Numbered from the stretch's first letter, positions 4,301 to 58,847 are shown. The stretch is 64,000 bases of DNA from Phoronis australis (GCA_002633005.1 NMRA01000851.1:16093-80092); one strand, 5' to 3'. The notes: generated by a model not told the origin, from the sequence alone. Numbers and translations are program-made.

Positions 4301-4791
4301 TTCGCCAAGTGAATCCTCTCTTTGACGGAAAAAGTTCTCGAAAGGGACCACAGACATCAAACGTATTAATTATTCCCTTAAGAAATTTTGTAGCGTTTGG
4401 ATTATTGCAAGATCTATAATTGCAAGTATCCAGTTCTTGACTGAGAAATAAATTAAAATCTCCACATACATGTAAAATAAACTTATCGGCATTCATTTCT
4501 TCAATTATTGAAAATATATTACTATAAAAATTCGGATTATCAGTATTTGGACCGTACAAATTTACAAGGATGATCCTCTCTCCATCCATAATTAGTTCTA
4601 TAATAACATAATTTCCCGTAGGATCCTTTCTCACACTTTGAACAGTGAACTCAAAGTTATTATTAAATAGAATAGCTACTCCTCTTGAATTAGTCTTGTA
4701 AGAGCTGAAATGACAAGTATAACCCCACTGAGATTCAATGTACGGCTCCAAATCACAAGCAAAGTGAGTGTCTTGTAGACAATATATGCTA
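1373..4791 (-). mobile_element. 5'-truncated L1/Tx1-clade LINE (ORF2: APE endonuclease, RT core in the gap, C-terminal Zn finger), frameshifted
   Basis: APE motifs IYCLQDTHF, SRGVAILF, NLYGPN, CGDFN, ARLDFF, SDHS. Post-RT motifs KFIWNNK..KRDVL..EEGG and CTFC..ETVDHIFFEC. AATAAA plus poly-A at 1373-1400. TSD aattttgcgaac(a/t)ctt at 1359-1374 and 4792-4807. Confidence 0.93.
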
Positions 4792-5164
4792 AATTTTGCG
4801 AACTCTTAATCATAGACTGTGACAATTAATGTCGATAGTTCGTAGTAACTGCACAAGCCAGAAAGACACTAATTAAGCAACATGTTATATCATCTAAAAT
4901 TACCTGGAATAGAATTTTCGTCCATTATATGGCTATTATTATTAGAAAAGCACGCAGAAAAACGAACACGTGAAAATCACACGGCAATATAGCATACGGC
5001 AATTCACTAATTAATCGAAACTATGTTTTTGTTACACTTGACATTACAAATCTTGTTTAAATTGGCTTGATGTGTAAAAATTATATAAAATAAGGAATGA
5101 AAACGTTACTCATCTTGCAAGAAACCTTCATGTCGTGATGTACAAGTTTTTTTGGAAGATTTTC

Positions 5165-6310
5165 TACTTACTTACTTGTAAACACCGGTTTCGTTGCTGC
5201 TGACCGTCGCTCGTCTTCAGCTGGTTAGGAATCGTCATTGGTCGTTTTGACCCTGATCCAGTACAACTTATAAAACCCGGGCACCTGAGGTGGATTCGCA
5301 CCTCAGATCTTGCAATGGTCGTGTTGCAAAGATGCTTCTTCTCTGCAGGCAGGTGTAAGCTAAACCTGCTTCCATTGCTGCTGAAACAGCACTTTCCTTG
5401 AAGTCACAGTAAGTCCCAAAATATTCGCCAACCTCCAAAGGGATCCTGTGACACTTCCACCCATTTTCTGTACAGCCATGTATCATAACTTGATACTTCA
5501 GTGTCTTCCTCTCGTTAGCTTCATTGACCTGTGTTTCCAATGGCACTATTATGGCCAATTCCTTTAGGCTTTGCGACCATAAGACTATATTAGGCCCCAT
5601 TGCTGTCACTGCTATGCGTCTTGGGAAAACTGCTCGACTTCCCAGAACTACTGTACAATCATCTTCATGTCACTCGACTTGTGGAATAAAACCTGGTGGT
5701 GATTTTCTCTTTCACTGCTCTGCTCTCCTATCATATCCAGGATATATGACAGGGCTTTCAGCACTTGGTTATGCCACCACGTGTACTTTCCCTCTGCTAT
5801 TGCTGCTTTACACGCTGATAGTATGAGCTGTAGAGTACCCTCTTTCCCCCACCTATCACATCTGTCGTCTTTAGCTTTCCACCACAGACTCAAGTTCTTC
5901 GGCGTGGGAAGTTGATCGTACACTGCTCTAAGCATAAACCTGTGTTTCTGACTTTGTGATGACAACTGATCCTATGAAGTGACCTTGCTTCTCAAACAGC
6001 CATCCTACGTCGTCCATTCGCCCTGCTTCATTAAGCCCACCGCTATTACACCTCTCTTCTCTTCCCGAGCATTGCGTATCTACTGAAGCACCATATGTCT
6101 TCGTTCCTTCCCTTTTGTTGTCTTCCATCAGATCTCTTAGTTGGTATGAATCCTAGCCCCTGTCTACCCACGCACACTGTTCCGACTATATCCTTGTGCC
6201 GCGATCTGCTCTCTGCCTCCTCCACAGCCGCTGCTGCTTCCCACTTTGTACCTGCCATGATTCCTACTCTGGCACTTCTCATCAAGCTGTCCTTAATGAA
6301 TTTCATGAGA
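5165..6310 (-). mobile_element. Degraded 3' fragment of a HERO-clade non-LTR retrotransposon (Zn knuckle + restriction-like endonuclease)
   Basis: GTKWEAAAAVEEAESR..HKDIVG.V..GRQGLG; RFMLRAVYDQLPTPKNL..W; ILSAC..YTWWHNQVL; PNIVLWS..VPLE..EANERK..KY..PLEVG. Short (GTAA)n tail at 5165-5180. Confidence 0.85.
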
Positions 6311-8862
6311 TTGGAATATTTTTCTTAACGTTTGAAAGCTGACCAAAAAGTACACGCTCTCTTGCTCATCAAGTCCGACTATGATACAGTCCCAAAATGC
6401 ATTCCTGTTGGGAATGGCTCGATGACCTCGGGTAGGTTAAAGGTTGCTGAATGCAAAACAGTGATGGCTGAGTTCAAAAGCACACCATAGTCCAAATCGG
6501 CTGAAAGTAGCCCCATTTCTAAAGCACGTTATCGATTTATTTTTTTACGCCCAAGTCTGACTGAATCTACTTCTGGCTAGGTTTTCATTTACACGTTTGT
6601 ACATTTCTAACGGAAAATGTTCAATTCGTGTCTTATTGTTCTGTGGGTGAAAGCCGTTCGGCTCAAAGATCGACGTATGGTCAACATGAACCCCAACATT
6701 TTGCTTAAAACCTTTCAATGCTCAGAGACTGTACGTAGGATTTATGTATACTAAGTGTTAAGCACAATGTGTCTCAGGGTGATTATTTACTAAATGGCGA
6801 CGGTGTATTCACAGTTTACTAAGTGACTGAGTAGTGCAAGCGCAATTACATGTAATTAAACGCTACCTGTTTTTGGTGGGAAGAAAACGTAGGCTGCTGC
6901 ATTCCTCTGAAAATCTTCATCAGGACTTCTTATTTACTGATCCAACAATTCCCCAAAATTTCTTACCCAGGCTTCTTTGGAATTCTGGGCCAACTGCACT
7001 CTTGGGCCCAAACTACAGTGCATTTTGTTGGAGCTGATGGCCATGTGTACGTTGACTTACTGAAATGACTTTACCTACATGTACTTCTTAACTTACATTA
7101 ATCCTATGTCTTAATAAACACACGGTTATTTACAATAATTCTAATTTCAAGGTATTTCACTGACTCGATGATTTTTTCAAATTAAACATAAAGAATGGGA
7201 AGATTAACTTTCTAATGCTAAATTTTGATATCTTTTGAACCTGAAGCACATTTTTGTTACTGTAACATGAATCGGCACGTGCAATTAAGTATGAGTGAAA
7301 ACTCACGTCCACCTTGCATTGCGAAATCTCCATTATTTGCAGTATAACGCATGTACATGTAGACAATCCTAAACGAGTCTCAGGTTGGTGACATGGCATA
7401 GCCTATTAGAAATTTCGTAAAAATCCCGAGGCTTGTAGAGGGATGTGACAAAATTTTAAAAGGCTTTGACCATGTCATAAATCTGAGACAAGTGTACGAT
7501 TTGTTTTCTCAGATGAATCGTAAAAACGATCTTTTTTGTTGAAAAACTCGACGGGTCTAAAACTTTCAACCACCCGAAGCAAATTTTGTAAAAACACGCC
7601 TGCGGAATGTAAAGTAATTCAGTTACTTTTTGTTTATAGGTTTATTTTAAGCTTAGCAAATGTTAATTGCGTTCAGCTTTCGTAGCAAACATTCAAGATG
7701 AAAGCAAATATATAATCTTAGAAGTTTTTATATTAAAACTTAAAAAATGTCTATAAACAATAGTCACCAAGGCTTCCGCGCGCGTGATCACTGAATTGAC
7801 CTTGAGACAGCCTAGCTCGACAGTCTCGACGCGTTTCTTGAGTTGGAGTCCGTCTCCGTTTGAATGAACGTGGATATGGAATTCGCCGCCGAAAGTGGTT
7901 CCGTTTAAGTAGTTGTTTGCTTGTCCTTCCGACTGGGAGTACGTAGATTAGCGGCATCCGGTTTGTCAATCATAACCTTGTCACCTTAGAATCCCAGCAT
8001 TGTTTGACGATGATTTGCGCGCGTTTGATTGTTCTAGTGTTTTGCAGACAATAAAATGAAAGGCACATGGATTTCTACTTTGCACTATTTTGTGATTTGC
8101 CCATGAAATATCAAAACATTACGTACTCGGTGTTATTAACCAGTCGTGTCGTAACAAATTCCAGGTCATGTGAGAAAATCTAATGAAATGTACATTATTT
8201 TAAATACGTTTGTAAGTGCACGGTAAAATATGACGTTATCAACGTTTTAAAGCGCAATTATAAAAACTACTTTAGATTAATGATCGAGTTCTAAATGTGT
8301 TACAAAACTAATTGATCATATGATGTGGACCAAAAAGTTTTCGGTAATGGGATTTCGTTTTGGTTTGAAGTTGACTTTTTCATAAAAATCGTGAGAATCC
8401 TACAACTTCCTGTATTTTATTAGCTTGCAAGTGTAAAATTTGGAAACAATTCCAAAATCAGTTAGCAAAATTGTGCATAAAAATTGCATCTTCACGTTTG
8501 GGATCAATCCATACAGATAACCTGTACTAAGTTCTGAAGTGTTCCAAATTTGATTTTTTTTTCTACAAATTTTGATTAAAATGTTAACATTGAAACGATC
8601 GTGTTATTGAAAGGTCGGATATTATTCTAACTGAAACACACGAAAACGAAAGAGAAAATGAAGACATCAGGTTATTCGTTCACAGCATTATATTATGGTG
8701 CGAATGTCTATGAAGCACGTGAGCCCACGTCACAGCAATTTACTGAATTAAAATGTGCTCGAGTCCGCCTTTTCTAATTGGTCATTGTAAGTTTTACTCA
8801 GCTTTTGAGCATCTTATGTTAATGTAGCACACCGACTGACAGCGGATGAAGTTCTTATTTAG

Positions 8863-9044
8863 TTATTTTCTTGAGCTCTTCTCTAATACAACTGCAGTCG
8901 ACTTTATCTCATCCGCAACATACCCGGCGCCCTCAAGCTTGCGACGAACGACTATAGCCGCTATGGCGAAAAGAACGATGAGGGCTAAAGCAACCACGAA
9001 TCCAATGGCAATGTGTGTTGAAGACGAGACGCCTATACTTATTT
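8863..9044 (-). CDS. Terminal coding exon of mosaic receptor: transmembrane helix and short cytoplasmic tail
   Basis: Acceptor ttgcag, phase 1. Translates ISIGVSSSTH-IAIGFVVALALIVLFAIAAIVV-RRKLEGAGYVADEIKSTAVVLEKSSRK-stop: a hydrophobic helix followed by a basic stop-transfer motif. Confidence 0.85.
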
Positions 9045-9947
9045 CTGCAAGGTTATGCAGTAAGCTTAGATATAATTAGGCAGCTCTTTCAAAAGTTGCA
9101 AAACAGTTCCTTGAACGTTTGGATACTGTGATACCACCAATTATCGGCATTATGGAATGATGTACATGTAACAGCGTGTACAGCCCAGGTGGTTCGCTCT
9201 TTATCAGTGGCAGGAGGAGAAGCAGAGTGATAGGATCAAGTACATGTACATGTAGCATAGCGTTACACATTAATTATCAGAACGACGTAACACTAGAGCA
9301 TTCCGATGATTGGTTGGAGTCTCACGATAACACATTCCAATTGGCCAATGTTGAGATACATGCACGTGTAATGCATAGGTGCAGATAGGCCAGGGCTGCG
9401 GCTAATTTGCACGGTCAAGATATTAAAATCTAGGGGTAAGCCAGGCTTGGAGACAGTTTTTAGTTACGTGTTGCATATAGGCTTAGCGAAAGTGGATTAT
9501 TTGTACATGTAATTGTCAACATGTTGAGAATGAGAAAATACCACTTGCTTTTCTGCCGCTATGCTCTTCCTCAAGAAGGTGGCACCGTGTTACAGTTTAC
9601 ATTTGTGTCCTGCTGGTTAGCGACTGAGGAATTGCCTGCGATCTCAGGTAACCAAGCCAGTTTTGCAAAAAAACTTGTTACTTGATGGTACTTTTAGACC
9701 ACATTTTAGAATCTGGAGGAAGTTTGCCTTCAGAATATAATCATGGCTTACTTCAAGCATCGGCAAGGAAGTGGGGGTGGGGGTGAAAAGTACCAATTTT
9801 GTGACTTTTTGCTCATTTTTTCTTTGCCTACTTTACTTTTCACTAGGAGTAAAAGGGTCAAAAATACAACACACGATAACTTCTTTGTCCTCATTTGTCA
9901 GGTTTTGAATGTGGAAAGAGTCAAAACAAGTCATTATTTGCATAAGG

Positions 9948-11636
9948 TTTTCGAAAGAATGAAGAAAAAGTGACAAATCCAACGGTGCATGTTTTGCTAG
10001 GCGAAACCTAGTGAGAACTGTTTATTCTTGTTTTGGCTTGCTATTGCCGCTCACAACACGTCAGACACAATAGTCGTTTTTTACACATCCATGATTTCAA
10101 GGTAAGAAAACAATTCTCACTTTCCGACTTATTTCTGCACCATATGTAGGGTGCTACGACACAGAAATAACGCAAATAGGATCTTTTATAATAGACAAAA
10201 CTGAAACAAAACGTGTTTTAACTGTCATTTTATTTTAAAACTTTACTTTGAATTGTAATTATAGAAGAAAATGAAAAAACCTCCGAGAAACACGATGTCG
10301 CACAAGCAGTTGCAATCAGTATCCCTGCTGCACACCCAAAAGGACAGGAGCATTGATTTGTACATGTACATGTACTGACAAACCTCAAAGAAAGACAACT
10401 GCGTTCGTTAACTGATGAAACTCATGCACGAGTTTTGTTTCTACGTACAGTTGGTGCTTCAATAATGTCTTCACGTAACCATGTAAAATCACGAGAGAAT
10501 ATTAGACACATTTGGACGTAAGTACTCAATTACTTGTTCCAAATAACCAACAATCGAACCGCCCGAACAACTTTTTAACGGTCAAAACTATTGTCGATTT
10601 TGAATTTCGAATAATTATTATAAACAGCTTATTATTTAAAATGACTTATTCTTATTAAAATGACGTAAGCAAAAAATTGAATTTCGTACCTCAAAAGCGA
10701 GGACCCCTATATTAATATAGGGGGCCTCGCTGAACGGAGGCCGGAGAGCGGGGCCTCCTATATTAATATAGGCGACCCCGCCGAAAGGAGGCCGGAGAGC
10801 GGGGCCCCCTATATTAATATAGGGGNNNNNNNNNNNNNNNNNNNNNNNNNNNNNNNNNNNNNNNNNNNNNNNNNNNNNNNNNNNNNNNNNNNNNNNNNNN
10901 NNNNNNNNNNNNNNNNNNNNNNNNNNNNNNNNNNNNNNNNNNNNNNNNNNNNNNNNNNNNNNNNNTTTCGAAAGAATGAAGAAAAAGTGACAAATCCAAC
11001 GGTGCATGTTTTGCTAGGCGAAACCTAGTGAGAACTGTTTATTCTTGTTTTGGCTTGCTATTGCCGCTCACAACACGACAGACACAATAGTCGTTTTTTA
11101 CACATCCATGATTTCACGGTAAGAAAACAATTCTCACTTTCCGACTTATTTCTGCACCATATGTAGGGTGCTACGACACAGAAATAACGCAAATAGGATC
11201 TTTTATAATAGACAAAACTGAAACAAAACGTGTTTTAACTGCCGTTTTATTTTAAAACTTTACTTTGAATTGTAATTATAGAAGAAAATGAAAAAAACTC
11301 TGAGAAACACGATGTCGCACAAGCAGTTGCAATCAGTATCCCTGCTGCACACCCAAAAGGACTGGAGCATTGATTTGTACATGTACATGTACTGACAAAC
11401 CTCAAAGAAAGACAACTGCGTTCGTTAACTGATGAAACTCATGCACGAGTTTTGTTTCTACGTACAGTTGGTGCTTCAATAATGTCTTCACGTAACCATG
11501 TAAAATCAAGAGAGAATATTAGACACATTTGGACGTAAGTACTCAATTACTTGTTCCAAATAACCAACGATCGAACCGCCCGAACAACTTTTTAACGGTC
11601 AAAACTATTGTCGATTTTGAATTTCGAATAATTATA
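9948..11636 (+). repeat. Near-identical ~670-bp direct duplication (9948-10618 and 10966-11636) flanking an N gap
   Basis: The two segments differ by only a few substitutions, and the second starts immediately after the gap. Confidence 0.9.
10697..10825. repeat. GC-rich minisatellite (~51-bp unit) with palindromic core CCTATATTAATATAGG
   Basis: About 2.5 units are visible before the gap. Each has the palindrome inside GC-rich inverted arms, followed by ggaggccggaga. Confidence 0.85.
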
Positions 11637-12221
11637 GCGCTTTACCCAAAAATGGCAAACTAATTCTTGCCTACCTCAGTCAAACGCAAAAAATACATGT
11701 GCACTGATGCGTCCTCAAACTTGTTTGAAAACGAAAACCAATGAATTCCATAATCAAAATCGCAAACCCTTGAAAATGCACTGCAGCATACATGTAGATT
11801 CCTTAAAACACTACATTTACACTACACTTGTTCATGTATGAACTGGTGAAAACACAACTTAACGATCGTACACGTAATGCCAGATACTGGTGAGGACGGA
11901 AGCGACTTGAAAACGCAAAAATACATGCCCTGTTGGTCATATCAACGTACATGTATTTGTGTCACAGGAAAAACTTTTGAAAACGACACGATTGGGGTGC
12001 ACGGTCTACCTTTTAAAAACGCAACCAGACGTTGTTTAAAGGTAACAGACCACCCTACTACCAGTAGTTCACGACTGGTCGCCAACTCGTTTCGGACCGT
12101 TCGACCAATGAATCGTGACCTGTACTGTAAATCAAGACTAAGCATAGATTAGTTCCAACGTCGTACCTTTTTAACAATGATCACGCTATAACGGATGATT
12201 GTCAGACTGTTACATACTTAC

Positions 12222-12699: not shown

Positions 12700-13319
12700 C
12701 TGAATAAGAAGAACGTGTACTAACATCTCAGTACAACGCTAGGAGTTCAAATCGAGTACCAGTTGACAAGAATCTGTATGGGTCTGGTTATATACTGTAC
12801 AGTTGCACCTTGCAGTGAAAGAGCACATAGGTGCGTGAGCTATTCCAAACTATAAGTTCCTTCAAGGCGCTCACTTTTGGAGGAAAAACATTCATCGCAC
12901 CGAATTAGTGGGAGGTCATACATATCAAGGAGGACAATGGACAAGTAATCGTCTTCCCCAGATCATAAGCACTCCGTTTAGTTTAGTTCAAGGATTTCAT
13001 GTTTTGCTCACATGTACTTAGTGTCCTGTTGGTGTTGGATTTTAGTGATTTTATAACCTCCAGAGGAGTAAGTCATCGAGATCCGATATGGATCTTGTAA
13101 TTGCTTGGGAATTGATTGATGTAGATGTACACCTTATCCCATACTAGAGTTCACCGAACCGGGTGATAACTTTTAAATCCGGTTTTAAGAAAATACCCGC
13201 GCAAGTCACTTTGTGAACATTTTGATGAACTATATAAATAATATTCATTGAAAGAAAATAATTTATTCATCATTTGTTAGGTCTTATTGGCAGATTTCAA
13301 TGTGTGTACTATTCTTCTG

Positions 13320-14190
13320 TGCCCGGTTGCATGAAACAGTACCTAATTAGGGACTTAACCAAGTTCCCAAACTACGTAGTTAAGTCCGTATAAGGATTTT
13401 GTTTAAGGACTGTTGCATAAAAAGGTCCCACACTCGGTCCTTATTGGGAATGCCCTATATCCGAAGTAGGTTCCCAAAGCCGTGGCTAAGGTCGCTTAAT
13501 ATGGCATAATTATTGTCAACGAGAGAATACCTGCCGCATTTACGTCCTGTGTTCCACCATTTGAATGATTGTTTGAATAAAGTGCACACTCAGTGTGCAT
13601 TATCTGAGAATTCCAGTTTTCAACTGCTGTTGAGAGAGCGGACGATGTATTGTGGCCGCCCACGCGAATGCAAATTAAAAACCAGTAAGGCGAACTGGTG
13701 AGAATACCATAATCTCCGGTAGGAGTCGCCGCACTTCCCAACGCGCTGTTAAATTCGTCTGCCCTGCGTAATAAGTGAGACGTGGGGTAAGTCGTGGCAC
13801 TATAGTAATCGATAAATTCAGTTTACGATGGAAGTACTACATGTACTTCAGTGGGTGAGATCACGCATTTCCTGTTCGACAACTCTAGCTTCTTTCCAAC
13901 GTTTCTAACTATCATGAATATCCCAACCCTTGAACATCTAAATCTTGTTTAGCTCACTGCCGCTAAACGTCGCGATCGGATTTGTTATGTCACGAAAAAT
14001 TCTTTTTTCAACAATATGAGCTTGATCGGCCATTTTATTGCTAGGAACTCAACTTAGAAACTTACTTTAGGTAACCCCAAAAGTTGAGTCTCTATTTAAT
14101 GCCTAAACTAACTGGGAACTTTTCATGCAACAGTCCCTAAAGACCAAAGGACATTCCTAACATTTTGGTACTGTCTCTTGCAACCGGGCA
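13320..14190. mobile_element. Non-autonomous PIF/Harbinger-type DNA transposon
   Basis: TIR tgcccggttgcatgaaacagtacc / ggtactgtctcttgcaaccgggca, with CTG/CAG (CWG) flanks. Confidence 0.8.
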
Positions 14191-15896: not shown

Positions 15897-17394
15897 AATT
15901 AGTCAGATAACGAGTAGCCGTGTCGCACCCAATTTCTGCGTACATGTACCAAAGCGGCCCAGGCTAGAAAACAGTCATTCTCACATCACGTCTATTCGCG
16001 CTCCGGGGAAAACAGTACATGTACAATAACCCTTGAGGAGTGCTCTTTTGGGGAATACCCTGCCCTCGTAGCGTGTTTTAATGATTCTGAAACGCGTGTC
16101 GATTGACGTCATATGTGGTTTACGTACATGTACATGTAGTTGCTAATTAGAATTTACACATTACCAAAGAAGGCCGATTATAGAGTGGTTAACTTAAGCG
16201 GTGAGATTGTCGTTGTCGTAAGTAGTTCTTCTGCGGCTGTAATAATTGAAAGGGATGAATAGGTTGAGGTCTTACCCATACACCTGACGATGCCAGTGAA
16301 ATGTGAAATAGCTAGGATGCAAGAATATTTAAACGGCGACTGAACCCTATTTTGATGAATTAATCGAATCCTGGCTCAATCACCTGCTGATACGACATTG
16401 GCGTCAGTCTTGAGCGGCAAAAGCAGAAATCAGCCACAAACTCGTACTCCCTCTGTCAAAGATTGAATATTATGATTCTTGGTGGGTGATCACTGAGTTG
16501 CCGGGTAAATCCTATGAAGCTCAAATCACGCTTAATTATTCGTGCAAAAGTCTTTGAAAAGAATTTTCACAATGTCCTCCAAACATAGGCGGCGCACCGT
16601 GCACATAGTCGGCGCACCATACAGTAAGTGGCCGGAAGTTTTAGCCCCGCCCTTTTTTCAATGCTGCACCGCCCATGCCAAAGTTTTGAAGATTTTTGGG
16701 GTTTAACCGTGCTTCAGTGAACTGTTTATATGAATCACTTGGAATATTTCTAATTAGGCAGATCACGAGTAGCCGCATCGCACCCCATTTCTGCGTACCA
16801 AAGCAGCCCAGGCTAGGACCCAGTCCTTGATCAAACCACGTCTGTGTGTGCTCTTGGAAAACAGTACAATAACCCTTGAAGGGTGCTCTTTTGGGCTAAC
16901 CCTGCTCTCGTAGCATGTTTTAATGATTCTGGACCGCGTGTCGATTGGCGTCAAATGTGGTTTAAGTAGCTGCTCATTAGAATTTACAGAGAAGGCTGAT
17001 TACATTTACAGCACCATGTGTTTGTGGTTAACTTACACGGTGAGATTGTCCTTGTAAGTAGTTCTTCTGTAGCTGTAAATAAAGGGATGAATACATGTAG
17101 ATTGAGGTGATAGTTTTGCCGGTAAACCTCACGACAGGAGAGAAATGTGAAATAGCTAGAATGCAAGAGTATTTAAACGGATACTGAACCCCGTTTAGAA
17201 GTCTTTGGGAAGAGTTTTTAAAATGTCCTCCAAACATGGGCTGCGCACCGTGCACATGGGCGGCGCACAATATGACGCCAAGAGCTTTAGCCCCTCCCTT
17301 ATTACAGTGCAGCGCCGCCCATGCTTTGAAGCTTTTCTGGGGTTTGTTGTACTTCAGTGAACTGTATAGATAAGTCGATTGGAACATTTGCTAA
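15897..17394 (+). repeat. Head-to-tail diverged tandem duplication (15897-16753 and 16752-17394)
   Basis: Both copies start aattag.cagat.acgagtagccg and end ggaa.att..ctaa. The first copy has an extra ~200 bp at about 16350-16548. Confidence 0.85.
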
Positions 17395-18354: not shown

Positions 18355-18608
18355 GGGACCTGCTTCAAGAAACTGACTTAATTTTGTTTTTGATTTCAGT
18401 TTAAGATTTTTCTTAACTTTCAAACACTGAAACGTCCACATTCGGTAAGAAAGTCAAAATTAAGACAAAACTTATGCCAAACACATGAGTAAAACTTATG
18501 ATTTCTTTCTTGAATTGGCTTTGAGACAAATAAATCTTTTATTCCAAATTTTACACAATAATAAGAAATGTCTTAGCTACAGGTAAGTCTGTTTTGTCGG
18601 AACGGGCC
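18355..18608. mobile_element. Harbinger-like MITE (~250 bp)
   Basis: Termini gggacctg.ttc.aagaaactgacttaa ... taagtctgttttgtcggaacgggcc. An inverted homolog lies at 30464-30711. Confidence 0.7.
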
Positions 18609-21629: not shown

Positions 21630-21706
21630 GCGGTCGGCAGAAGTATGGGGGGAGGCGGTCGGCAGAAGTATGGGGGGAGGCGGTCGGCAGAAGTATGGGG
21701 GGAGGC
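21630..21706 (+). repeat. G-rich 25-bp tandem repeat x3
   Basis: gcggtcggcagaagtatggggggag at 21630, 21655 and 21680. Confidence 0.95.
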
Positions 21707-25795: not shown

Positions 25796-25994
25796 AGGGA
25801 GGGAGGGTGAGGAAGGGTGGAGTTATACATGGAATATTATAAAGATGGGGCAAGGGCTAGAGAGACAAATTTCATCGAACAGAGTTCATTGATCATCCGT
25901 GTGACATTTTTGGGCTTGCACAAAGGTCAGCGATGAATCGGCCAGGAGAGTTAAACTTCGAACTGAGTGTCGACTGCAAAGCATCAATTCAAAT

Positions 25995-28900
25995 GGGGCT
26001 ATTCGGAAAATCTGCAATAACTAGAGGGCATGCTTGTACTAGTGGTGATAGATTAACAGCCTCGACTTCGCGAGCCCTTTAAATACATGGTGAAATGGCT
26101 TGCAGCCGTGCAACTGAATCTGAGATTGCGTAAAAAGGGTGCTTCTAAGAGAGGAAGTAAGCACGACCTCATACAAAGGTAAGGTTTGTGATTATTTTAA
26201 CAATTATTCCATGATTATTCTACCGATGCCTGTTAACTGAGGCACTCGCCGATGTCGACTTCGCGGCAGTCAGTCGCCAGCCATTGTCTGGTTAATCTTT
26301 GTATGTTGTGACATGTGATACGATACTTGATGTAGCAATCGGGATCTTTTCGTAGATCAAAGCATTATTATTGTTTGTAATGATTTCTTAAAGTTTATCA
26401 GTGACAGTTACACATCAATCAATGCTGAATGTTTATGCTGTCAACTCGATACAGGCTAATGAGTTAAGATTACAATCCAATCCCAATGGCAAAGGGTACG
26501 TGAGTGATAAATATCCATTGCATTAGACTATTTGTTTACTCCCTATCATCTTCTTCTGGAAATCTATTACACGTTGAAATGGAAATCTATCACGTCAGTT
26601 TTCACGTAACCTTTGGTTTTTAGGTTTGAAGGCTTCTACCGTGCAGAGGAGATATGCATCGCTTCTGCGCCGTCCCTGAATGGACAAAAATTGTTTTTTA
26701 GCATTTGACTGCAGCTAACCAACAAGATCTTCCCATCCAGTGCAGATCTGTTGTCAAAGCCTACATGTACTTTCAATATTGGAGACAACGAACAAAGCCT
26801 TTGAAAAAGAACAGCTATTTTTAAAGTCATTTTGTTAAATTACTTATTCAGGCCCCAAGGGGGGATTGGCATAGGGGGTTGTAATATTTGGTACAACGTG
26901 TGGAAATAACAGGTAATACATGTTCGGGAAAAGAGCATGGTGTGGTAATTCTTAACCTTCATGAAGTCCCTTCAAGTTGATTTCATGAAACTCTTTTGCT
27001 ACTTGTATCAATTGTAAAACCACGGAAATATATTACATTTTCTGAATTCACAGTGACTGAATAGTCTTAACTCATGCCTTGAAAGTCGTTATGAATTCAA
27101 AGGACTGCCATTTTTGTGAAATATCATTTTTGATGGTGCCTTAAGATTTGTAATTACTCTTAAACAACAGAAAGATTATCCATGACCCAAGTCTTTATAT
27201 CGTCTATTAAGAGAAAAACGATTCCCTCAACCTTAGGCTAGAAGTATGCTTGACAGACCCATGAACCTGTAATCTGAGTTTAAAATTGCTGAAAGTATCA
27301 AAATTAAAAAGGCTTGAAAATGGGTAACAAAGGTTTGAAGTTGTCTCAAAAACTTGTATATTTTACAGACAAGTGATGCGTTTAAAGAATTGTTATGGCT
27401 AGGGATAAAAAATAAAGACACAGTTTTATGCAATACTCATTATATACACCCTTGGTTTCTGAAAATAGCAATTATTTACTTTTATGTAAAACTGTAGACC
27501 AATCACCATATATTTTTGAAAAACAGGGATAACATTTTGATCCAATCTGGAGTACTTAATTATTCATATTTCAATATTTGTTCCAGGATCAGTGACATTT
27601 TAAGGCCACTTCAAACTGTATCATAGACAAGCTTTGTTACTCCGTTCTCTTCCCACAGCACTTCCACAAACCAGCAGTGCTGCATGGCACAATATGCTAG
27701 TCAGTGGCCCTGGAGAAATGTGAATCGCAGTACTAAGTTACCATAAGACAATGTTCCAGTGGAGTGTCTGTGTATCCAGACGAACTATATCTGACTGCTA
27801 CACAAATAAGCCTTGTTGGTGAGGATGCCCTTTCATAGACAATGAGTCATGTGTGGAAAATAGCTTATTTCCTTTCCTTGAAGAAACATGAGAGACTGAA
27901 GCTAAAGAAGACCTAGTCACACTCTGGTCTAGTTCAGAGTCTGATTTTGGGCTCAAAACGATTCAACTGATATGCTGCTGTGTTTACCTTCAATGGTCTA
28001 ATTGTGGATGTTATTGAGGCTTAATGAGGTTATATGAAAGAAAGCCACGTGTTGAAACTGGATCTTTTTTACAAGCACTTCTATAGGCCATTTAAACTAG
28101 AACCCAGTCAAATGAAAGCCAAAAGCTGAGTGACATTAAATTTTCCTTTCAGAAGAAAGGCTTTATACTATCGGTAAAAACTTTTCAATTTGGTACAGAT
28201 TATGGGGAAATGACATTCAGTGACTGCATCAATTGTCTTATTGTATGTTTTCATTTGTAGCTAGAGTAGCTGGATAAGAATTTGCTATGCACAAAATTCG
28301 AGAATAAACAATTATCAGTATATTTAAGAACGAATGGCAAACTGAAAAAGCACAGAAAGAAACAACATTGCGAGGGAGTCCATAATCAGGCATATCAGGT
28401 ACTGAATTTCTGAAATACGCTCAATTTTCTCAGGTTATTGCTGAAGGATTGCTTTTCACTTTCTCCAACGGTGAAATAGATGGTCAGGCGGTTGGTTTCA
28501 GTTGTTTTTTCTTGCCTGTAACAGAATAGAAATATAAGCAAATTGTAAAAGAAAAGACAAGACAAAACTACTTTTGTAAGGCAGAACATACTTGACCTTT
28601 CATCTTCATGCTTATGTGTAGAAACTAATAACCTTTGTACCCAAGTCTTATTTAATATCTGAATTAAAATAAGTGAAACAGGCTAAAAGTGATTTAACAT
28701 TGTGTATTTTTCATGACACTTAAAATGTGCTTCTGATCTCAACAAGTAAAATTCATTCTAGGTGTCAATTTTTTTCCAATGCAATGTTACGACAGTTACT
28801 GAATTAAGGCTTATTCATGTTAATTCGATAACTGAGCTGGTGGTCCTGGGGGTGGGGTCCACGATAAAATAAGGAAACTCACTCATCTAGAGAATTTTAT

Positions 28901-29297
28901 TGGAAACAGCATAGTTTTGAAGAGAAACTGCTGTGAAAAAGTCACTCTTGACTTCTGTGCATCACGTACTATACACCTCTTATCTTGGGAGCACTCCCAC
29001 CCAGGACAATATGAATATGTGCTGCTAGCCTATCCGGAATCAGGTGAGTTTCCAAAAAGAAACACTTAGTTCGACTCTATAAACCTGTTATTCAGTGGAG
29101 TAACTGGTGGGGATAACATCACCGAACGATGTTGATAGAAACTGATTGCTAAAAACTTACCAAGTAATGTTGTGTAGTCTCCGAATGGAAAAATTCCATC
29201 ATTTACCAGTTGTTTACATGCAGACAGCCACGCATGCGCAATTCAATCACCACTAGTACAGCAGCGACACCGCGAGCAGAATTCTCCGAATAGCCCC
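25995..29297. mobile_element. 3.3-kb TIR DNA transposon, copy 1 (PIF/Harbinger-ISL2EU-like, decayed)
   Basis: Termini ggggctattcggaaaatctgc / gcagaattctccgaatagcccc, flanked by AT on both sides. Homologous along its length to 36031-40171. Confidence 0.8.
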
Positions 29298-30463
29298 ATT
29301 GGCATTGCGTTTGGCTGCGTTGATTAAGGTGTTTCAAGGTTCTGGTTTAAAATCTCACGTTATCTCGAGGGGTTTGTGGACAAGTCTATGACTTCACTCA
29401 ATTATCTAGAAGTGCACTGTACATAGTGCAAGGCTTATCCCTTGGAAAGGGACAGAGGACTCCACTTCCCCCCGTATAATCCAGCATTCTTAACGAGCGA
29501 AAGGTAGAAATGTCCGCCAACAACCAACCACGTCTCTAAGTAAGTGATCATTTTATATACTACTATGAAACGGACCTTGGATTCACAGGTATTCCTTCAG
29601 GTTAACGGGTCTCAGAAGTCGAAGAGCAGAGCGTCATTTTCATCCTTTAATTTGCAGCCTAATAAACTATAAACTCATGTTTAAGATAATGTACACACAG
29701 TACGCTTGTACATCCAAGATCAACACTTTGGTCAACTTCGCAATATCACATCGCATAAGTAATATATGATCCATGAGAATCTTTCAGATACCCTACCTTA
29801 TAAATTGTTCTCTAGAACGCTGTTTTAAAAGATTGCACTTTTCAATAAAGACCTACTGTATCTGTACACAGGACTGGCATGATTTGTCTAAGCAGGTTGA
29901 AATTAGTCAAAATCACGACAATATTTTAAAAATTGCAATAGCGTTTCTGAAACAGTACGTTGATTAGTCTTGGGTCAGGAAGTTAGTTATGTACTTGACC
30001 GTGTTAGTTTGCTAGGAATGTAACGTTCGATCTGTTTGTATTTTAAGTATCGTTACGTGAGCATCTTATTGTTATACTGGTTTACTGAAAACACTGACAT
30101 TTTACCCAAAATCTGCTGGCAAAAAATCGTGCTTTTGCTATAGTTTGTACAAACTTTTCGATATACTGTAATCCTGCATAACATTGATCTCGCTGGCACA
30201 TGAATATCCCAATTAATCTTTACATAATCATCCATTTTTGAAGTTGCATGACTTTCCTTTGGGAAGGGGCCGTTTATCAAGACCAACGCAAATTAAATTT
30301 TTAGTCTTTTTGTAATATCTAAAACGAACCAATTTAAAACTGCTCTCCACATCGCAGGTTATAACTATGTGCAAATAACAGAGAAAAAAAATTTGGGTGT
30401 AATAACAGCCACCATTGTTTAAGAAACTAATGCTAACTATTACTTTTCCACTTCATTAGCTAA

Positions 30464-35986: not shown

Positions 35987-36030
35987 CTATTTATATGTTA
36001 CAAAGCATAATTAATACATGACTGCATAAT

Positions 36031-39000
36031 GGGGCTCTTCGGAAAATCTACAATAACTATAGGGTGCGCGTGTACTAGTGGTGATAGATTAATAGCCTCG
36101 ATTTCGCGAGCCCTTTAAATACATGGTGAAATGGCTTACAGCCGTTCCAACTGAATCTGAGATTGCGTAAAAAAGGGGCTTCTACATGTATGAGAGGAAG
36201 TAAGCACGACCTTATACAAAGGTAAGGTTTGTGATTATTTTANAAATGCTTACAGCCGGACAAAATGTTGTGATATCCTAGATCCGCCACTGCAATCAAT
36301 GCTGATTGTTTATGCTGTCAGCTCGATACAGGTTAATGAGTTAAGATTACAATCCAAGCCCAATGATAAAGCGCGGTACATGACAAATATCCATTGCGTT
36401 AGACTATTTGTTTACTCACTATCATATGTCTTCTGGAAATCTATTACACGATGAAATGGAAATCTATCACGTCTGTTTTCACGTAACCTTTGGTTTTTAG
36501 GTTTGCGGGCTTGTACCGTGCAGAGGAGACATACATCGCTTCTGTACCATCCCTGAATGGACAAAAATTGGTTTTTAGCATTTGACTGCAGCTAACCAGC
36601 AAGATCTTCCCATCCAGTGCAGATATTTTGTCAAAGCCTACAGTACAGCCAGTGAATTATTAGACTCTCTCCGGTGTCTCTCCGGTCTAGCCACCCGTGA
36701 CCGTAACCGGAGACAGACCGGAGAGTGAGACGTGAATCAACCGTGACAGCTGGAATGAGCCTAACCCGGATTTTACCGTGAGTTAGGCGTGAACAAAGCG
36801 CGAGCCAGCCGTGAGCCAGGCGTGAGTTTACCTACATCGCAGATGAAAAAGTAATTTATCAAAATTATATCAGAAACTAGCAGTTATGTGTGTGTTCTCA
36901 TACACTTTTGCTCATGTGAGGTTTATTTTTTTGAAATCGTCACGTTCAGCAAAAGACCAAAATTTTCTTCTCAAATCTTAAGTCACTTCAGGAAACAGAC
37001 CTGTGGACTATACTTTTCACTTATATATAATTATTTGTTTTTATATAAACTAATAAAGAATCTTAACACGCGTGTACATGGCGAACTTATTCAATTGCCT
37101 CCACGATATAAAGGAGCATAGCATGTCAATTCTCAGCACATTGATACCAAGTTCCGGCTTCAAGCGGAGAAAACTGATCGTGCCCATGCATTTGACCAGT
37201 CAAACAGATCACTGCTATTATTATTTTAGTGAAGAAGTACCCCGGAGATACTGTGAACTCAGTCGAAACGCATGTACTACGTGGATGGGGTTACAAATAC
37301 ACTGTAATTTAACTGCACTACGGATTGAGGACTTTTTAGTCAAAACATTTGCTTGCAGGAAGGGATGGGTATGTCAGAGTGGCGGCCTATTGAATTTTTG
37401 TGTACCCCAGTGCGGTGAAAAAATTTACGAAGTGACACAATACTTCAAAAGATGCATAGGCTATTTTTAGGGCAAATTAACTATACCAACACGTGACAAG
37501 TTTATAGGAGTCCACAGCCATGTAAAGACGACTCTGGACACAGGGTTGCGTATATTCGTATTTACTAATCGTGGTTATTGTACATGTATGTCGTTGATGG
37601 GACTGGCTCTTAAGTCGTAAATAGAAAATGTACATGTAACCGTAACACAAGATGAGCTGCAGGAAGACGTTTGTATGAACAACACGTGGAATTACAAAGT
37701 GTAACCCAAGTGTAATAGGTGAATGCTTGCAAAGATACTATATAATATACTATAATGTCTTTGCAACTTGTCCGAAACGACAGGCAATCAAGACGTTACA
37801 GGTATTTTTATTGATTAGACCGGTGCCCTACCATGGTTACCACAGGTACCGAAGGCGTGAAGAAAGCCTGAGGAAAGCGTGAACTAAACCAGAGGCAAGC
37901 GTGAGGACTACCCGGAGATTGGGCGTGAGGTGACCGTGACTGATTTCTGTCACGCCTGCGTTCCGGCTCGGCTCCGCTCTGGCCAGGCGTGAGGTAGTCC
38001 GGACGAAGTCTAAAAATTCAGTGGCTGTACTGTACTTTCAATATTGGAGGCAACGAACAATACCTTTGAAAAGGAACAGCTATTTTTAAAGAAAGGTATG
38101 TAAGTCATTTTGTTAATTTACTTATTCAGGTCCTTAGCGGGGGATTGGCATGTGGGGTTGAGGTTGTAATATTTGGTACAACTGCATGTGTGGAAATAAC
38201 AGGTAATACATGTTTGGGGCAAAGAGCATGGTGAGGCAATTCTTAACCTTCATGAAGTCCCTTCAAGTTGATATCTTGAAACTGTTTTGCTACTTGTATC
38301 AGTTGTAAACCAATGAAAATATATTTACATTTTCTGAATTCACAGTGATTGAATAGTCTTAACTCATGCTTTGAAATGTTGCAAGTCGTTATACATTCAA
38401 ATGTCTGAAATTTTTATGAAAATTGCATTTTTGATGATGCTTTACGATTTGTAATTACTCTTAAACAACAAAAAGATTAGTCATTTTTAAATTACCCAAG
38501 TCTTCATATCTTCTATTAGGAGAAAAATTAAAAGTCTGAGAAACGGTCCCCTCAACCTTAGACTAGAAGTATTCTTGACAGACCCATGAACCTGTAATCG
38601 GAGTTTGAAATTGCTGAAAGTATCAAATTTAAAAAGGCTTCAAGTGATATGCTGCTGTGTTTACCTCCAAGTGTCTAATTGTGGATGTTATTGAGGCTGA
38701 ATGAGGTTACATCAAAAAAGACACATATCGAAATTGGAACTTCTTTACAAGCGCTTCTATAGGCCATTGAAACTAGATCCCAGTGAAATGAAAGCCAAAA
38801 ACTGAGTGACATTAAATTTTCCTTTCAGAGGAAAGGCTTTATACTATTGGTAAAAAATTTCAATTTGGTACACATTGTGGGGAAATGACATTCAGTGACT
38901 TCATCGATTGTCTTATTGTATGTTTTCAGTTGTAGCTAGCTGGCTAAGAATCTGCTATGCACAAGATTCGAGAATAAAGAATAATCAGTGTACTTAAAAA

Positions 39001-40171
39001 CAAATGGCAAACTGAAACAGCACAGAAAGAAACAACATTGCAACGGAGTCTATAATCAGGCATATCAAGTGCTAATTTCTGAATTACGTTCAATTCTCTC
39101 AGGTTATTGCTGAAGGATTGCTTTTCACTTTTTCCAAAGGTAAAATAGGTGGCCGGGCGGTTGGTTTCAGTTGTTTTCTCTCACCTGTAACAGAATAGTC
39201 GGAGAAATATTAGCATATTGTAAAGGAAAAGACAAGACAAAACTACTTTTGTAAGGCAGAACATACTGGACGTTTCATCTTCATGTTTATGTGTAGAAAC
39301 TAATAACCTTTTTACCCAAGTCTCATTTAACATCTGGATTAAAATATGTGAAATAGACTAAAAGTGATTTAACAATGTGTATTTTTCATGACACTTAAAA
39401 TGTGCTTCTGCTCTCAACAAGTAAAATTCATTCTAGGTGTCATTTTTTCCAACGCAATGTTACGACATTTACTGAATTAAGGCTTATTCATGTTAATTCG
39501 ATAACTGAGCTGGTGGTCCTGGGGGTGGGGTCCGCGATAAAATAAGGAAACTCACTCATCTAGAGAATTTTAATGGAAACAGCATAGTTCTGAAGAGAAA
39601 CTGCTGTGAAAAAGTCACTCTTGACTCCTGTGCATCACGTACCATACACCTCCTATTTTGGGAACACTCCCACCCAGGACAATATGAATATGTGCTGCTA
39701 GACTACCCGGCATCGGGTGAGTTCCCTAATAGAAACACTTAGTTGCACTCAATAAATATGTTATTCAGTGGAGTAACTGGTGGGGATAACATCACCGAAC
39801 GATGTTGATAGAAACTTGATTGCTAAAAACTTACCAAGTAAAGTTGTGTACATGTAGTCTCCGAATGGAACTGCATACAGTAGTCATAGAGCAAACACGG
39901 GGCTTCAGCATCCACACACTTTTTGTCAGTTACTTGACTCTTTTGACCGCAATTGTCCACGGATATAGTAACTTTAGGTCTTTTGGGAATTTTGGTCACC
40001 TGTCGAAGACTTGCACCAAAGAAAATAGAAGTAATAAGGCTAAGGGCGACGACGTATTTTGATAAGAATTCATCTTTTATCAGTTGTTTACATGCAGACA
40101 GCCATGCATGCGCAATTTAATCACAACTAGTACAGCAGCGACACCGCGAGGAGAATTCTCCAAATAGCCCC
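36031..40171. mobile_element. TIR DNA transposon, copy 2 of 25995-29297, with nested insertions and an internal deletion
   Basis: Same ggggct..cggaaaatc / gaattctcc.aatagcccc termini and AT flanks. Lacks ~27320-27965 of copy 1. Carries inserts at 36641-38032 and ~39870-40065. Confidence 0.8.
36641..38032. mobile_element. Nested non-autonomous TA-TSD element (Tc1/mariner-type ends CAGTA...TACTG)
   Basis: 26-bp TIR cagtacagccagtgaattattagact / agtctaaaaattcagtggctgtactg. TA at 36639-40 and 38033-34. Subterminal (c/g)cgtga repeats. Absent from copy 1. Confidence 0.88.
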
Positions 40172-40214
40172 ATTTAGCAAAATGATTCTTGCAAATCTAC
40201 AGCAAAACACTCAC

Positions 40215-42079: not shown

Positions 42080-42345
42080 GACATGAAAAGGTGCCTTTGT
42101 GGAGGAAGACTGAGAACGCCTCTGTGTTCGAATTGACGTGAAAGTTGCACAGGAATGGCATCGGTTTGTGCGCCGTACGAGATTGTGGAATGACAATGTG
42201 GAACAAACGATTCAAGTCGGTCGGTAGCCACACTTTGTTCGGCATATTTCAGTCGAGGACTTGTGTTTCGACCAAACACAAAAGAGGCCTTACAATGAAG
42301 GACAAACTGCTTCCAAGTGATGCCAGGCAATCTACCCCGTCCCAG
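42080..42345 (+). mobile_element. Degraded THAP domain (DNA transposon remnant)
   Basis: Frameshifted pieces MKRCLCGG, EWHRFVRRTRLW, LCSAYF and KLLPSDA, in THAP order. Confidence 0.45.
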
Positions 42346-54003: not shown

Positions 54004-54058
54004 CTGAAATATAAAAAACGTAGCAATACAACAGGGACACTCGAATCTCTGTATATAC

Positions 54059-54089
54059 CCACAAAGCCATTATCATCCGCCAGGCACAT
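54059..54089 (-). CDS. Possible first coding exon (MCLADDNGFV)
   Basis: ATG with a phase-1 gtatat donor and a 55-nt intron. Weak support. Confidence 0.25.
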
Positions 54090-57000
54090 TCGGTGCCTCT
54101 TTTCTTACCACTGGAGTTTTATATGTCATTTGTTTTTGTCTGATAGTTTACAAATTTTTTTCTCGGTTGTATTACTCGGTTCGTCCTTCTTGCAAGTGAA
54201 GCATCACTGCTGTGGGCTGCACCCCCGACGTGAGAAACTTTGATACACTGGACAAATACCAATGTACGCGTGATCTGAAATTTATTGTATTACCAACACC
54301 AATGAGAGGCACGAAAATGCGATTTCCAAAACAAGGGGACGGGCTTTTTTATCTCCGAGACAAAGGAAAGTTTTATCGCATTGTAATCTGGGACGGCTCT
54401 ACATGTATCTGCTTTCATTCCGTTGACTTCGACAGGACTCATCCAAACTCAATTATACTTGCAAAAACACCTTGGCAAAATCATTTGGTTGTTTTGTCGA
54501 TTTTTTGTCGAACTATTGTAGTAATTAACGCGTTATTGCGCCTTCCCGATAATTATTAATTTACGTCATAGTATTGCGCTGTAAGTTGTCACGCTTTCAA
54601 CAAAGTGGAGGTATTTATCTTTTTGAGGTGATTGAGCCAAAATTAAGTCGGACTCTAGTCTTAAGTAAAAATATATTTAGTTGCACTTTTGGGTAAAAAA
54701 CATCGTCAAATTAAGGCATCGAGTAGTTTATTTTTAAAAACTGTAGTCTCATTAAGTTTAAGTGATTTTAGCCGGTGCTGCCATGCATCTTTTACTGTTC
54801 TTGTTGAAAAGAGTTACATGATGCAGTATTTGAGATTAAAGTTCATGCTTATATTCTTTGTTGGATGGTACATTCCGCAGTCGCCTAAACCTACCTCTGA
54901 CCAAGGCAACAGCTGCACGACCAGAACCTGGTTTCGTCATTCTGTACCCTAAATCCGCTCTCGGTAGTTACCATTTATTTTCGGCTATAAGGCGTCGTGA
55001 AAATCTTTCAATCACTTTAAAGAGGTGGTGGACCTGAAAACACAAAAGTTTTTCACTGTACGTAAAATGCATGTCTGTATTGGGTTATTCTTGTGAATAT
55101 AGCATGTTCTAATACGGGTAGAATCTCCGATGGTTAGTGCCAGTTCGTTTACTTCATCCTGGGTTTTAATTATTCAAATATATGTTTGTGAAAATTTTCG
55201 AAACCAGGACACCTGTCCTCCCGAGACATCAAAATGGTAAACCTCCGAGAGATATGGGTATGGTTTATGAGAATGGAATGACGTTTTTCTTCGGTTGACG
55301 TCACCAATCTGAAGTGTAGCCAGTCAGTGGTCTACATTGGAATATTTAGAAATTACCAGCACATTATTGCATGATTTGGAACCATTTCGCAGCAATTTCA
55401 CATTAATAGTGTAACAAGATATTGTTTTATTCAGTAAAACTTAGTCAAAATGGAGTGTGCACTTGAGACAATACAACACTAGCCACGTTGTGACCAAATT
55501 TCTCTTGACATGTGGTCTTTAAAGACTGTGTTGTTAAAAAGTTTCTCGCAAAGCACCAATCTATAAAAAGAATTCCTTGCAGGATGTGGGCGTCATTAAG
55601 CATGTGTATCTATGTAGTAGGTAAGGCATGACAGCCAATAAACTAACCATTTTAACAGTGTTGGAAATCCGTGCAATCGTAGAATTAGGTGATACATGTT
55701 ACGCTGGAAGTGTACATTAGATATTAACCTGAGCACTTTGAGACCGTGTAAACACATTTGTTTTAAGAAATAATGCAGCAAGTACATGTGTATAATAGCT
55801 TGGAAATCAATCCCTTGTATAGAACTCGAAGATTCGAATATTTACTCTTCGTTTGCCACTCCGCTATTTGCATTCTTAATTTACATATACCGGTGAACTC
55901 GTGAACTGAAGGATTCACTGGGCTCATTGGCTGGCTTTCGGGTCACTGCATAACGTTATTAGGTTTAAAGGAAGGAGTAGAATTTGGCAGAGGATTTGAT
56001 CTGTTGTTACTAGAGGAAGGTAAAAAGAAGCGAAATATAAGCTGTAAGACCTTTTACGGTTTGCTAACCATGTCAAGGAATTTGATTTGGTTAGGACTAA
56101 TCCTTCCTTTTGTACATGTCCGTTCTACCAATCGATTGCCTTCAGCTCTCTTAAAGAACTGACTATTGGCTAAGGTACATGTAATTGGAGGAAACTGTCT
56201 ACAAGTAAATGAGTGAATTGAAGATTCAGCTTAAGAGTTCAGTGGTAGGTGAATGAGAGGATGATGACAAGCGAATAGAGAAACGTCGAATGTTTGAGGC
56301 TACATCGGATCTAATTTGCGTACACATGTATTTGCAGCATTACTTTTGCAGTAACATTTCTTCACGACCGTAATTTTGGCGTGTTTGCGCTGATATTCGA
56401 TGTTTGACATGTATGACACTATATCATACACGTAAAATGCACAGTTTTTCAAACATATTTTCATTCAGGGTTGGTTTTCCGAATAACCGAATGCCAGCTA
56501 AAAAAATATGTTACAGTGGTTCACCGCATAGCGAAAATCTAAAGCAAAAAGTCGAATATTTTTTGAAGTGATTGATTTCCTTGCATTTGTCATTTCTGAA
56601 GCAGGAAGTACTTAGCGCAGTCGTAATTCCAACGCTTGCGAGTGTTTTTTTTATGTGCAAAGCCATTGCGATATGCACAACTCGAAGTACATGTACTACT
56701 GACTTGTAACCCACGGCGTGACGATCGGTCTATCCTTACTGACTACCCTCCCAGATGGTGAATGCACCTAATCGGCACAATTTTCAAGTCTCAATAGTAG
56801 ACTGAAGGAGTAATGTAGATTGTTCGTCGCAACTCCCTGGGAGACTGTAATCGAACGACACTCCATAACAGCTAAATGTTACCTGGAATGGAATTTCTGT
56901 CCATCATTCGGCTTCCAGCACAGAAGCACGCAGAAACCACGATCACGTGAAAACCATGCGACAATGTATCACACGGCAGTTCACAAAGCAAAACATCGTT

Positions 57001-58269
57001 TAGGGAACACTTACCATGGTAACACTTGTTTGCCTGCAATGACATTCTGACAAATAAAGTTGAACTTGCCATCCTTTGACCTTTTCACATACAGTACTAA
57101 CTGCGGCACCTTCAAGTGACTTTGTCGCTTTTATGCCACAAAAACCCAATTAGGGAGTATTTTTGTATGTGTTATTGTTTTTGATCCTCTTAGTTATTGG
57201 TAAGAGTTGTTGTAAAACAACAAAATCCGTTAGGTTTTGTGTTTGTTAGAAGTCGCTGTGTTCCATGTATTCGCTGAAATCAAAGCTACTGGCTACCAAC
57301 TAGGTACGCTTGCCAGTCAGCTGAGATACTGTGTATCTTTTTTTTTTTAGTAGAGGCATTTATTAACTCAACCAACCAGTATATAGTTGTGCGACAATAT
57401 GACATCTAGTTTAGTGTATATCAAACAAATTACGAAAATTATCGGACCCTATTGAAAGCTACGTGTAGTCAGGCAAAAAAGACCACCTTGCCTGGAATCT
57501 CTCAAGATCCAATTTATCATAGTAAATAATTTTTCCCAGATTGTAGTAATAACATACCTCACGTAAAAATGACTGAACATTGGGATAGTGTGTATCTTAA
57601 TTGTTTATATGTCGAAAGCAATTGTCAAGAATCTAATATTTCAACAGATTGAGCCGGCTTAACTGACTCTACACTGTGGAAGGAGTGCTGCATTTAATGG
57701 AATACATTTACATCTTTCTGAAAATATAAATGGTTAACCCATGAAATAAAAACATGTACATGTACATTGTTGATCACCACATTTCTTCACAAACGTGATA
57801 TTTCACAGAGATAGCCTCTTTACCACAAATACATTTTTCTAAGTAACCAAATTCGCAGACTCTTACCCTTTTTCTATTCAAAAAAAAACTTTTTTGACTG
57901 AATTTTTTCTAAAATCTATTATTCCGATAACACTGTTTTCAAAATATTACCCCTTAAGCATTCCAAAAAGATATTATTTTTGACAGCCAAATTCTCGGGC
58001 TGAAATACCTTAGAAAGTCTCAAACACGCTTCTGTAGCTAATGCAGTAAATAATTAGATTCCACGAGCTGTGCGCGAAAAAATCATGTTTTGTGGAAAAT
58101 GCGGCGATCTCCGTGAGGGTTGGCGTTGTAAGGCAAGTTATCGTTATTTTGCAATGTACTTAAAACATCAAATCCGTCACGATTCTGTCGAAATGTGTGG
58201 CCTCCGGTTTCTTGGTGCCAAGTCTTTTACATGTAGGAGAAAAACTGTAACTATTAGAATAGATTTTAA

Positions 58270-58535
58270 ACACTTCCGTTTCTGAAACTTGTGAAAAACT
58301 TCATATTAACAACAATTTTTGAAACAAAAACAAGTTTTCAAAATGTAAGCTTTTAAAACTTAATGTTTTGAAAAAGTTCAAGAAACTTAAGTACTGTATT
58401 TGGAAAAAATAAGTATTTGGGAACAAATTTGTGGAAAAAACGTAAGTTTTAATAACTTAAGTTATAAAAACTAAAAAATTTAGACTTTATGCTTTTAAAA
58501 AAAGTTAAGAGATGAAACCCTAAGTTTCTTCAAAA
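58270..58535. repeat. AT-rich repeat built from aaacttaagtt-like palindromes (related block at ~61475-61725)
   Basis: Recurrent aacttaag/ttttaaaa motifs. ataacttaagtt.taaaa occurs at 58452 and 61483. Confidence 0.5.
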
Positions 58536-58847
58536 ATCATGTTCATATCCTAAAATGAAAAAAATCTTGCCTCTCCAGTACTTGTTTTATGCGCACGAGG
58601 CAATACACAAAATACACTCGGCCTATTCCTAAGCATCACTGTGTCAGTAATACATGTACACCCGTACGTTTTTGCGTTGCCAGGCCTCTCCTAAAGTGCA
58701 AAAATTTGATGCATATTACGTTTTTGTTACAATTTTCGTCGAATGTAGAATACATGCGAGACATATACCATTGATACACTTTACGAAAACGACGCCATAT
58801 TTCTTGAATTTGCATGGCACACGGAGTAAAACAATTAACACACTTAA

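Follow-up and report, generated by a model that had tools for sequence, protein, structure and literature searches.

Inherited six-base insertions at TA in Phoronis australis as putative excision footprints of Tc1/mariner-type elements

The octamer TACATGTA occurs 63 times in a 64,000-nucleotide stretch of the Phoronis australis genome (hereafter the window), and these words represent CATGTA added to a bare TA. With a probability that we place at roughly 0.83, they are putative excision footprints of Tc1/mariner-type elements with CA...TG ends, inherited and not somatic. If so, transposon exit would be a major source of small inherited insertions. Once a cut-and-paste element has been excised, its earlier presence at a site normally goes unrecorded. 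With a fixed eight-letter scar, past jumps could instead be counted, mapped and dated. Such scars would also show how germ-line breaks are repaired in animals that lack genetic tools, and mutation models would gain an insertion process that is sequence-specific. Table 1 presents an overview of the features on which the argument is built.

Table 1. Scar loci, host repeat copies and the resident terminal inverted repeat (TIR) element in the window
Feature	Position	Strand	Remarks
TA(CATGTA)n loci	4467..58658		57 loci; 10361 and 11378 are a single event copied within a 98.7% duplicate
Scar in LINE endonuclease frame	4467..4474	-	LINE ORF 4248-4805, minus; in-frame His-Val immediately before CGDFN
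Four loci: 15941, 16016, 16125 (double), 17092	15941..17099		Local duplicate pair, 14% divergence; each missing from partner
TACAGGTA	18578..18585		+6 at TA relative to copy at 30491; direction not polarised
Host repeat copy 1	25985..29307		Element of 3.3 kb, itself bounded by inverted ends; read depth indicates several hundred copies
Scar in copy 1	26762..26769		Reads GCC-TA-CATG-TA-CTTTC; homologous TA of copy 2 filled by TIR element
Host repeat copy 2	36028..40174		91-92% identity to copy 1; scars 36183 and 39849, TACAGTA 39876, nested TIR element
Scar	36183..36190		Bare TA in host repeat copy 1 (26146)
Left TA of target-site duplication	36639..36640		1394 bases (TIR element and one TA) skipped in 452 reads
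TIR element	36641..38032		1392 bp, non-coding; ends CAGTACAGCC / GGCTGTACTG (CAG...CTG)
Right TA of target-site duplication	38033..38034		From repeat-copy alignment and reads
Scar	39849..39856		Missing from copy 1 (29175); 6 contigs of other copies read TA-GTCTCC
TACAGTA	39876..39882		Gain of +5 at TA when compared with other copies of the family; seen as loose ends at 29190, 1 contig in one set and 3 in another

Abundance and distribution of the octamer

The whole-window count of 63 falls into 51 single and six doubled loci, with the octamers at positions from 4467 to 58651. Under Markov models of order 0-3 the expectation is 1.4-3.7, an enrichment of 17-45-fold that bears out the original prediction of about 50 octamers against roughly 2 expected, and the word ranks first among the N-free 8-mers of the window. 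Its density is about one per kb, and about 1.3% of the TA sites in the window bear a scar. The other 15 words of the form TA-NN-palindrome-TA occur only 0-4 times each, so that the excess is specific to the CA/TG core.

The window has 39% GC and five N gaps, and the scars within it are unevenly spread: none lies in positions 1-4400 (3451 called bases) or 59000-64000 (5000 bases), and ten octamers lie in 8000-12000. A direct duplicate of 670 bp (9949-10618 and 10966-11635, 98.7% identical) flanks an N gap and carries the same doubled scar in both halves; two haplotypes may have been assembled side by side here. A 51-bp tandem repeat at 10696-10825, built on the palindrome TATATTAATATA with GC-rich arms, ends at an N gap. 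Contigs built independently from reads, from runs that are possibly the window's own sample, cover four stretches that hold many sites (15200-16964, 21698-25538, 41012-42006 and 42154-42507) with no gaps. Since these contigs were built separately, the octamers are not an artefact of the window's assembly.

With regard to genes, no scar was found in the 3030 bp of nine ORFs with certain or possible host-gene exons, an absence that is not significant (p=0.06). The original prediction that gene exons are free of the word holds for these nine ORFs at that level, but the scar at 4467 lies in frame within a LINE ORF. Exon-like ORFs on the minus strand between 22120 and 48074, with kringle, F5/8 type C, WSC and thrombospondin-like features, probably belong to one secreted multidomain gene, for which a homology search with the kringle exon returned no full-length homologue. 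Most scars would fall in the introns or upstream of this putative gene. The one-mismatch neighbours of TACATGTA are in excess (62 against 39), but one of 13 control words matched that ratio, and no age is therefore claimed.

Insertion at TA dinucleotides

Repeats within the window permit scarred and unscarred copies to be compared. Of 25 self-matches, 14 were aligned, the omissions being the 98.7% duplicate and the tandem, palindromic and redundant inverted matches. At 7-25% divergence, these 14 pairs comprise 5116 aligned bases with 609 substitutions and 89 indels, and they contain eight scar loci, none of which is common to both copies. Seven of the 89 indels are scar-type, or about one scar-type gain per 90 substitutions between repeat copies here; one of the seven (26762) sets a scar against a filled copy cut at its TA. 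Clean gains of six or twelve bases over a bare TA are found at 15941, 16016, 16125 (+12), 17092, 36183 and 39849. These are six of the seven pairs put forward in the original prediction; in the seventh (34998 against 51007) the partner reads TA-GTCTTTT, which is compatible, but a larger indel adjoins and the gain is not clean. At 18578, TACAGGTA may be a decayed or variant scar.

Data from outside the window polarise three sites as gains, namely 26762, 39849 and 4467. At 26762, the six bases are missing in 2179 of 2743 reads, nearly all of which come from other copies of the repeat family. A net gain at TA relative to the pre-insertion state, as expected of a footprint, was found. Between individuals, no polymorphism was seen among the 12 of 86 and 12 of 29 indel rows listed, the second individual being covered at about 3-4-fold depth. 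None of the outcomes named beforehand as contrary to the original prediction occurred: the word is enriched, the three sites polarise as insertions and not as deletions, and a pre-existing unit is rare at the sites of gain.

The same alignments bear on whether the word could have arisen by substitution. Two deaminations of TACGCGTA, by methyl-CpG decay, would yield exactly TACATGTA as a matter of sequence logic. Decay predicts substitutions and not +6 indels, and it is refuted by the length differences; TACGCGTA has zero occurrences, while its one-step intermediates number 5 against 2.2. We give this route next to no weight.

The gain at 4467 is located in a degenerate LINE (1608-4805, minus strand) with endonuclease and zf-RVT domains, which is split by an N gap. 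Among 119 scorable homologues of 120, the span from YGP to GDFN is 33 amino acids in 104, 34 in 12, 32 in three and 35 in none, as against 35 in the window. One LINE match bears a Crassostrea name. Depending on frame, the six-base insert encodes YM, TC or HV, and it is stop-free in all frames.

Taken as a transcription-factor site, TACATGTA could have arisen by point mutation and been kept by selection, as has been argued for the same word in Phytophthora. Binding factors do exist, with PsMyb37 binding TACATGTA (PMC11134190) and the word being cited as the preferred Irx site (PMC3520976). Here, by contrast, all six base pairs come in as a single insertion, the sites include transposon interiors and the coding frame of a LINE, and none of the eight loci is conserved between diverged repeat copies. 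Selection for binding is a very unlikely origin, although some scars may have been put to use as binding sites later.

A TA in three states

The closest tie between a scar and an element comes from a high-copy repeat, two copies of which lie 10 kb apart in the window. One TA of this repeat is found empty (452 reads), scarred (26762) and filled by the TIR element of copy 2. In a second individual, the 452 reads join 36638 to 38033, and since they skip the element together with one TA, both the empty site and the TA duplication are shown. The features expected of a Tc1/mariner element, a TA target-site duplication and terminal inverted repeats starting with CA, are both present, and 20 of the 22 terminal bases are complementary. 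The CA/TG bases added in the scar match the terminal bases of this resident CAG...CTG element. The original interpretation of the words as excision footprints is supported, and its best support, which the original prediction did not include, is that a CAG...CTG element fills the very TA homologous to scar 26762. By read depth the element has about 15-100 copies; 13 of its 14 plus-strand CGTGA words are clustered near its ends, and it is itself scarred at 37581 and 37631. Two metagenome matches were considered as relatives, but their likeness is limited to the 20-base end motif and they were treated as chance.

Under a target matrix built from the other scars, the three-state TA ranks 13th of 240 TAs in the host, and the chance of a coincidence is about 0.4-1.2%. 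Near-private letters common to the scarred and filled host copies number only 1 of 14 and 1 of 7. A sister relationship of the two copies is unsupported by these letters, although both copies are without a segment that 1086 reads of the family carry, and scar 26762 need not descend from the 36641-38032 insertion. The three states fit a brief common history that ended in excision, and they fit equally two separate hits at one favoured TA; either reading links the scar to an element of the CA...TG kind that targets TA. Among the 15 of 184 joints listed, none at the filled site was of footprint type, so the scarred state is either rare in the host family or hidden.

Other copies of the host repeat carry TACATGTA elsewhere (joints 36642-38041 and 38802), in one case at a TA about six bases from the three-state site. 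A segment starting with CAGTAG, found nowhere in the window, joins at 38919 (about 28244 in copy 1) in 1086 host-family reads, and both host copies are without it. This loose end was rejected as a second TA-flanked element, being preceded by TGT and not TA.

Only one standing TA-CA...TG-TA element is found in the window against 57 scar loci. The imbalance would be expected if an element, or a domesticated transposase complex, joined its CA ends to TA and was removed at once, so that scars outnumber lasting elements; the near-uniform product also suits such a process, and an equal flank bias would be expected from it. The resident element, with its duplicated TA at a scar-homologous site, shows that ordinary insertion occurs, and the ratio would be the same if large insertions were lost over time while small scars stayed. 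Immediate removal is an improbable alternative to excision of inserted elements, though the two would look alike in the window. Among 224 stop-free ORFs of at least 62 amino acids in the window, no Pfam transposase match was found, a screen that shorter broken remnants would escape; the matches were confined to LINE, RNase H, THAP and host-gene domains and weak sub-threshold ones.

Further repeats are present around these copies. Related inverted-repeat elements with TTAA-AGG ends lie at 58841-60103, 44949-45742 and 34151-34411, the first two being scar-free, with THAP-domain fragments at 59180 and 34151; these elements may be Kolobok-like. Small unclassified elements bounded by inverted repeats are found at 13316-14194, 55768-56345 and 60960-61378. 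Two minus-strand ORFs, 35654-35986 with a weak RNase H match and 63351-63773 with 141 coiled-coil-like amino acids and no Pfam match, are probable retroelement remnants.

Target preference and doubled scars

Collapsing the scars to TA and removing the duplicate rebuilds 56 empty sites, which were examined at eight offsets. The flanks show a symmetric bias, with A at -3 in 28 of 56 and T at +3 in 26 of 56, against a background of 0.31 (p=2e-4). The bias persists when ATG-flanked sites are left out (22 of 49 at each position, p=0.002). In addition, both sides are poor in T at -1 and in C at -3, and G at -1 is enriched, mainly upstream. For Tc1 the published target motif is CAYATATRTG, and for Sleeping Beauty it is RCAYATATRTGY (PMC2577343); the scar sites agree with them at -3 and +3 but differ at -1, where G and not A is favoured, making the match partial.

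When scored with the same matrix, the CATG-TA half-site of a scar is 2.5 times better than the average TA target. Five doubles are observed once the duplicate is removed, against 1.5 expected at random and 3.7 with the half-site boost. The original prediction that repeat hits build (CATGTA)n agrees with the six doubled loci and with this fit.

Doubled loci could also be taken as a sign that replication slippage or fold-back template switching makes TACATGTA from local sequence. Flanks of TG-TA or TA-CA are found at 18 of 56 sites against 15.7% expected, which is about twofold (p=0.002) and beyond what the matrix explains, and a flanking CATG is found at 3 of 56 empty sites against 55 of 4247 TAs. 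The excess of TG-TA and TA-CA flanks leaves room for a minor local-copying route. As a general route, local copying fares poorly: at 38 of the 56 sites the TA is not preceded by TG and not followed by CA, a prior CATG unit is available at only the three sites, and 17092, 36183, 26762, 15941 and 4467 have no adjoining CA or TG to copy. Fold-back moreover predicts all of the TA-NN palindromes, of which only the CA/TG form is abundant, and the doubles fit the half-site boost. Slippage and fold-back are refuted as a general route and quite unlikely to be the source of the word, while they may act on a minority of sites.

A minor class of scar is suggested by TACAGTA/TACTGTA, which occurs 28 times against 11.8 expected and ranks second of 2772 words tested, although it was named beforehand; two of the 28 are the TIR element's own ends. 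The class has no clear -3A bias (20 of 52) and probably comes from 3-nt cuts. The gain at 39876 fits a 3-nt footprint of the Sleeping Beauty type. The one-sided forms TACATA/TATGTA are not enriched in the window (38 against 42 expected). A single stereotyped outcome, as originally proposed, is slightly overstated in light of this second class.

Proposed mechanism and scale

In the mechanism that we favor, excision of inserted elements, an element would insert at TA and duplicate it, and the transposase would later release it by cuts placed two bases in from either end, so that each flank keeps a 3'-CA overhang. End-joining would retain both non-complementary overhangs and fill them in to give TA-CA-TG-TA. 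Fill-in across unpaired overhangs suits polymerase mu or lambda. Were excision to take place in germ-line or stem cells, the 6-bp scar, in-frame and stop-free, would be nearly neutral and could persist. Its CATG-TA half-site, as a roughly 2.5-fold better target, would then attract repeat hits and give rise to doubles. In this scheme we infer the transposase, the repair route and the genome-wide scale of scarring.

If the window is typical of a genome of about 500 Mb, a size estimated from run sizes and depth, extrapolation gives 4-5 x 10^5 scars. A bolder and rather doubtful generalization is that germ-line exit of Tc1/mariner elements, sealed by fill-in end-joining of the worm-soma type, is a leading small-insertion process across marine invertebrates. 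It would leave hundreds of thousands of identical palindromes per genome, prime repeat hits, insert YM, TC or HV into proteins and offer TACATGTA-binding factors ready sites, among them perhaps the effector-promoter motif of Phytophthora.

Comparison with known systems

The sequence taCATGta is named as a Tc1 footprint in PMC3520976, as the original prediction stated of TA-CA-TG-TA, and in C. elegans it is credited to Eide and Anderson 1988 (as cited in PMC3520976 and PMC13148408). The C. elegans scar consists of the same eight letters, in which the doubled TA encloses two bases from each of the CA...TG ends. Tc1 excision leaves non-complementary 2-nt 3' overhangs (PMC4490562); among somatic Tc1 footprints the +4 scar accounts for 78%, and NHEJ is required for empty sites to form in the soma (PMC13148408). 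Germ cells instead mend the break through HR or polymerase theta, and the products vary (PMC13148408, PMC4490562). The +4 scar is thus typical of the soma in C. elegans, whereas here it is inherited, near-uniform and present at about 1.3% of the window's TA sites. An inherited uniform scar would imply soma-like end-joining in the gamete-forming lineage, where the C. elegans germ line repairs otherwise.

While the taCATGta scar itself is already known from C. elegans, its density in inherited animal DNA was not found reported. Searches of a largely open-access literature listed no report of genome-wide TACATGTA footprints in animals. The window adds the three-state site, the read-based polarity, the target signature and the in-frame protein insertion.

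Sleeping Beauty offers a second comparison. Its canonical footprints are TACAGTA/TACTGTA, within a definition of footprints that allows 2-4 terminal bases (PMC6943129), and it shares with the window the letters of the minor class and the -3A/+3T target bias. Sleeping Beauty keeps three bases of one end, whereas the dominant scar here keeps two of both ends.

The third comparison is with Phytophthora, where TACATGTA is known as motif-1 or AM-20 and is very abundant, one listed example being doubled (PMC3520976, PMC11134190). The word is read there as a transcription-factor site, and a footprint origin is dismissed because of its abundance (PMC3520976). The present case would caution that motif searches which turn up many copies of TACATGTA can be picking up a product of mutation where no regulatory signal exists. 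In Phytophthora abundance was taken as evidence against a footprint, whereas here abundance accompanies insertion at TA.
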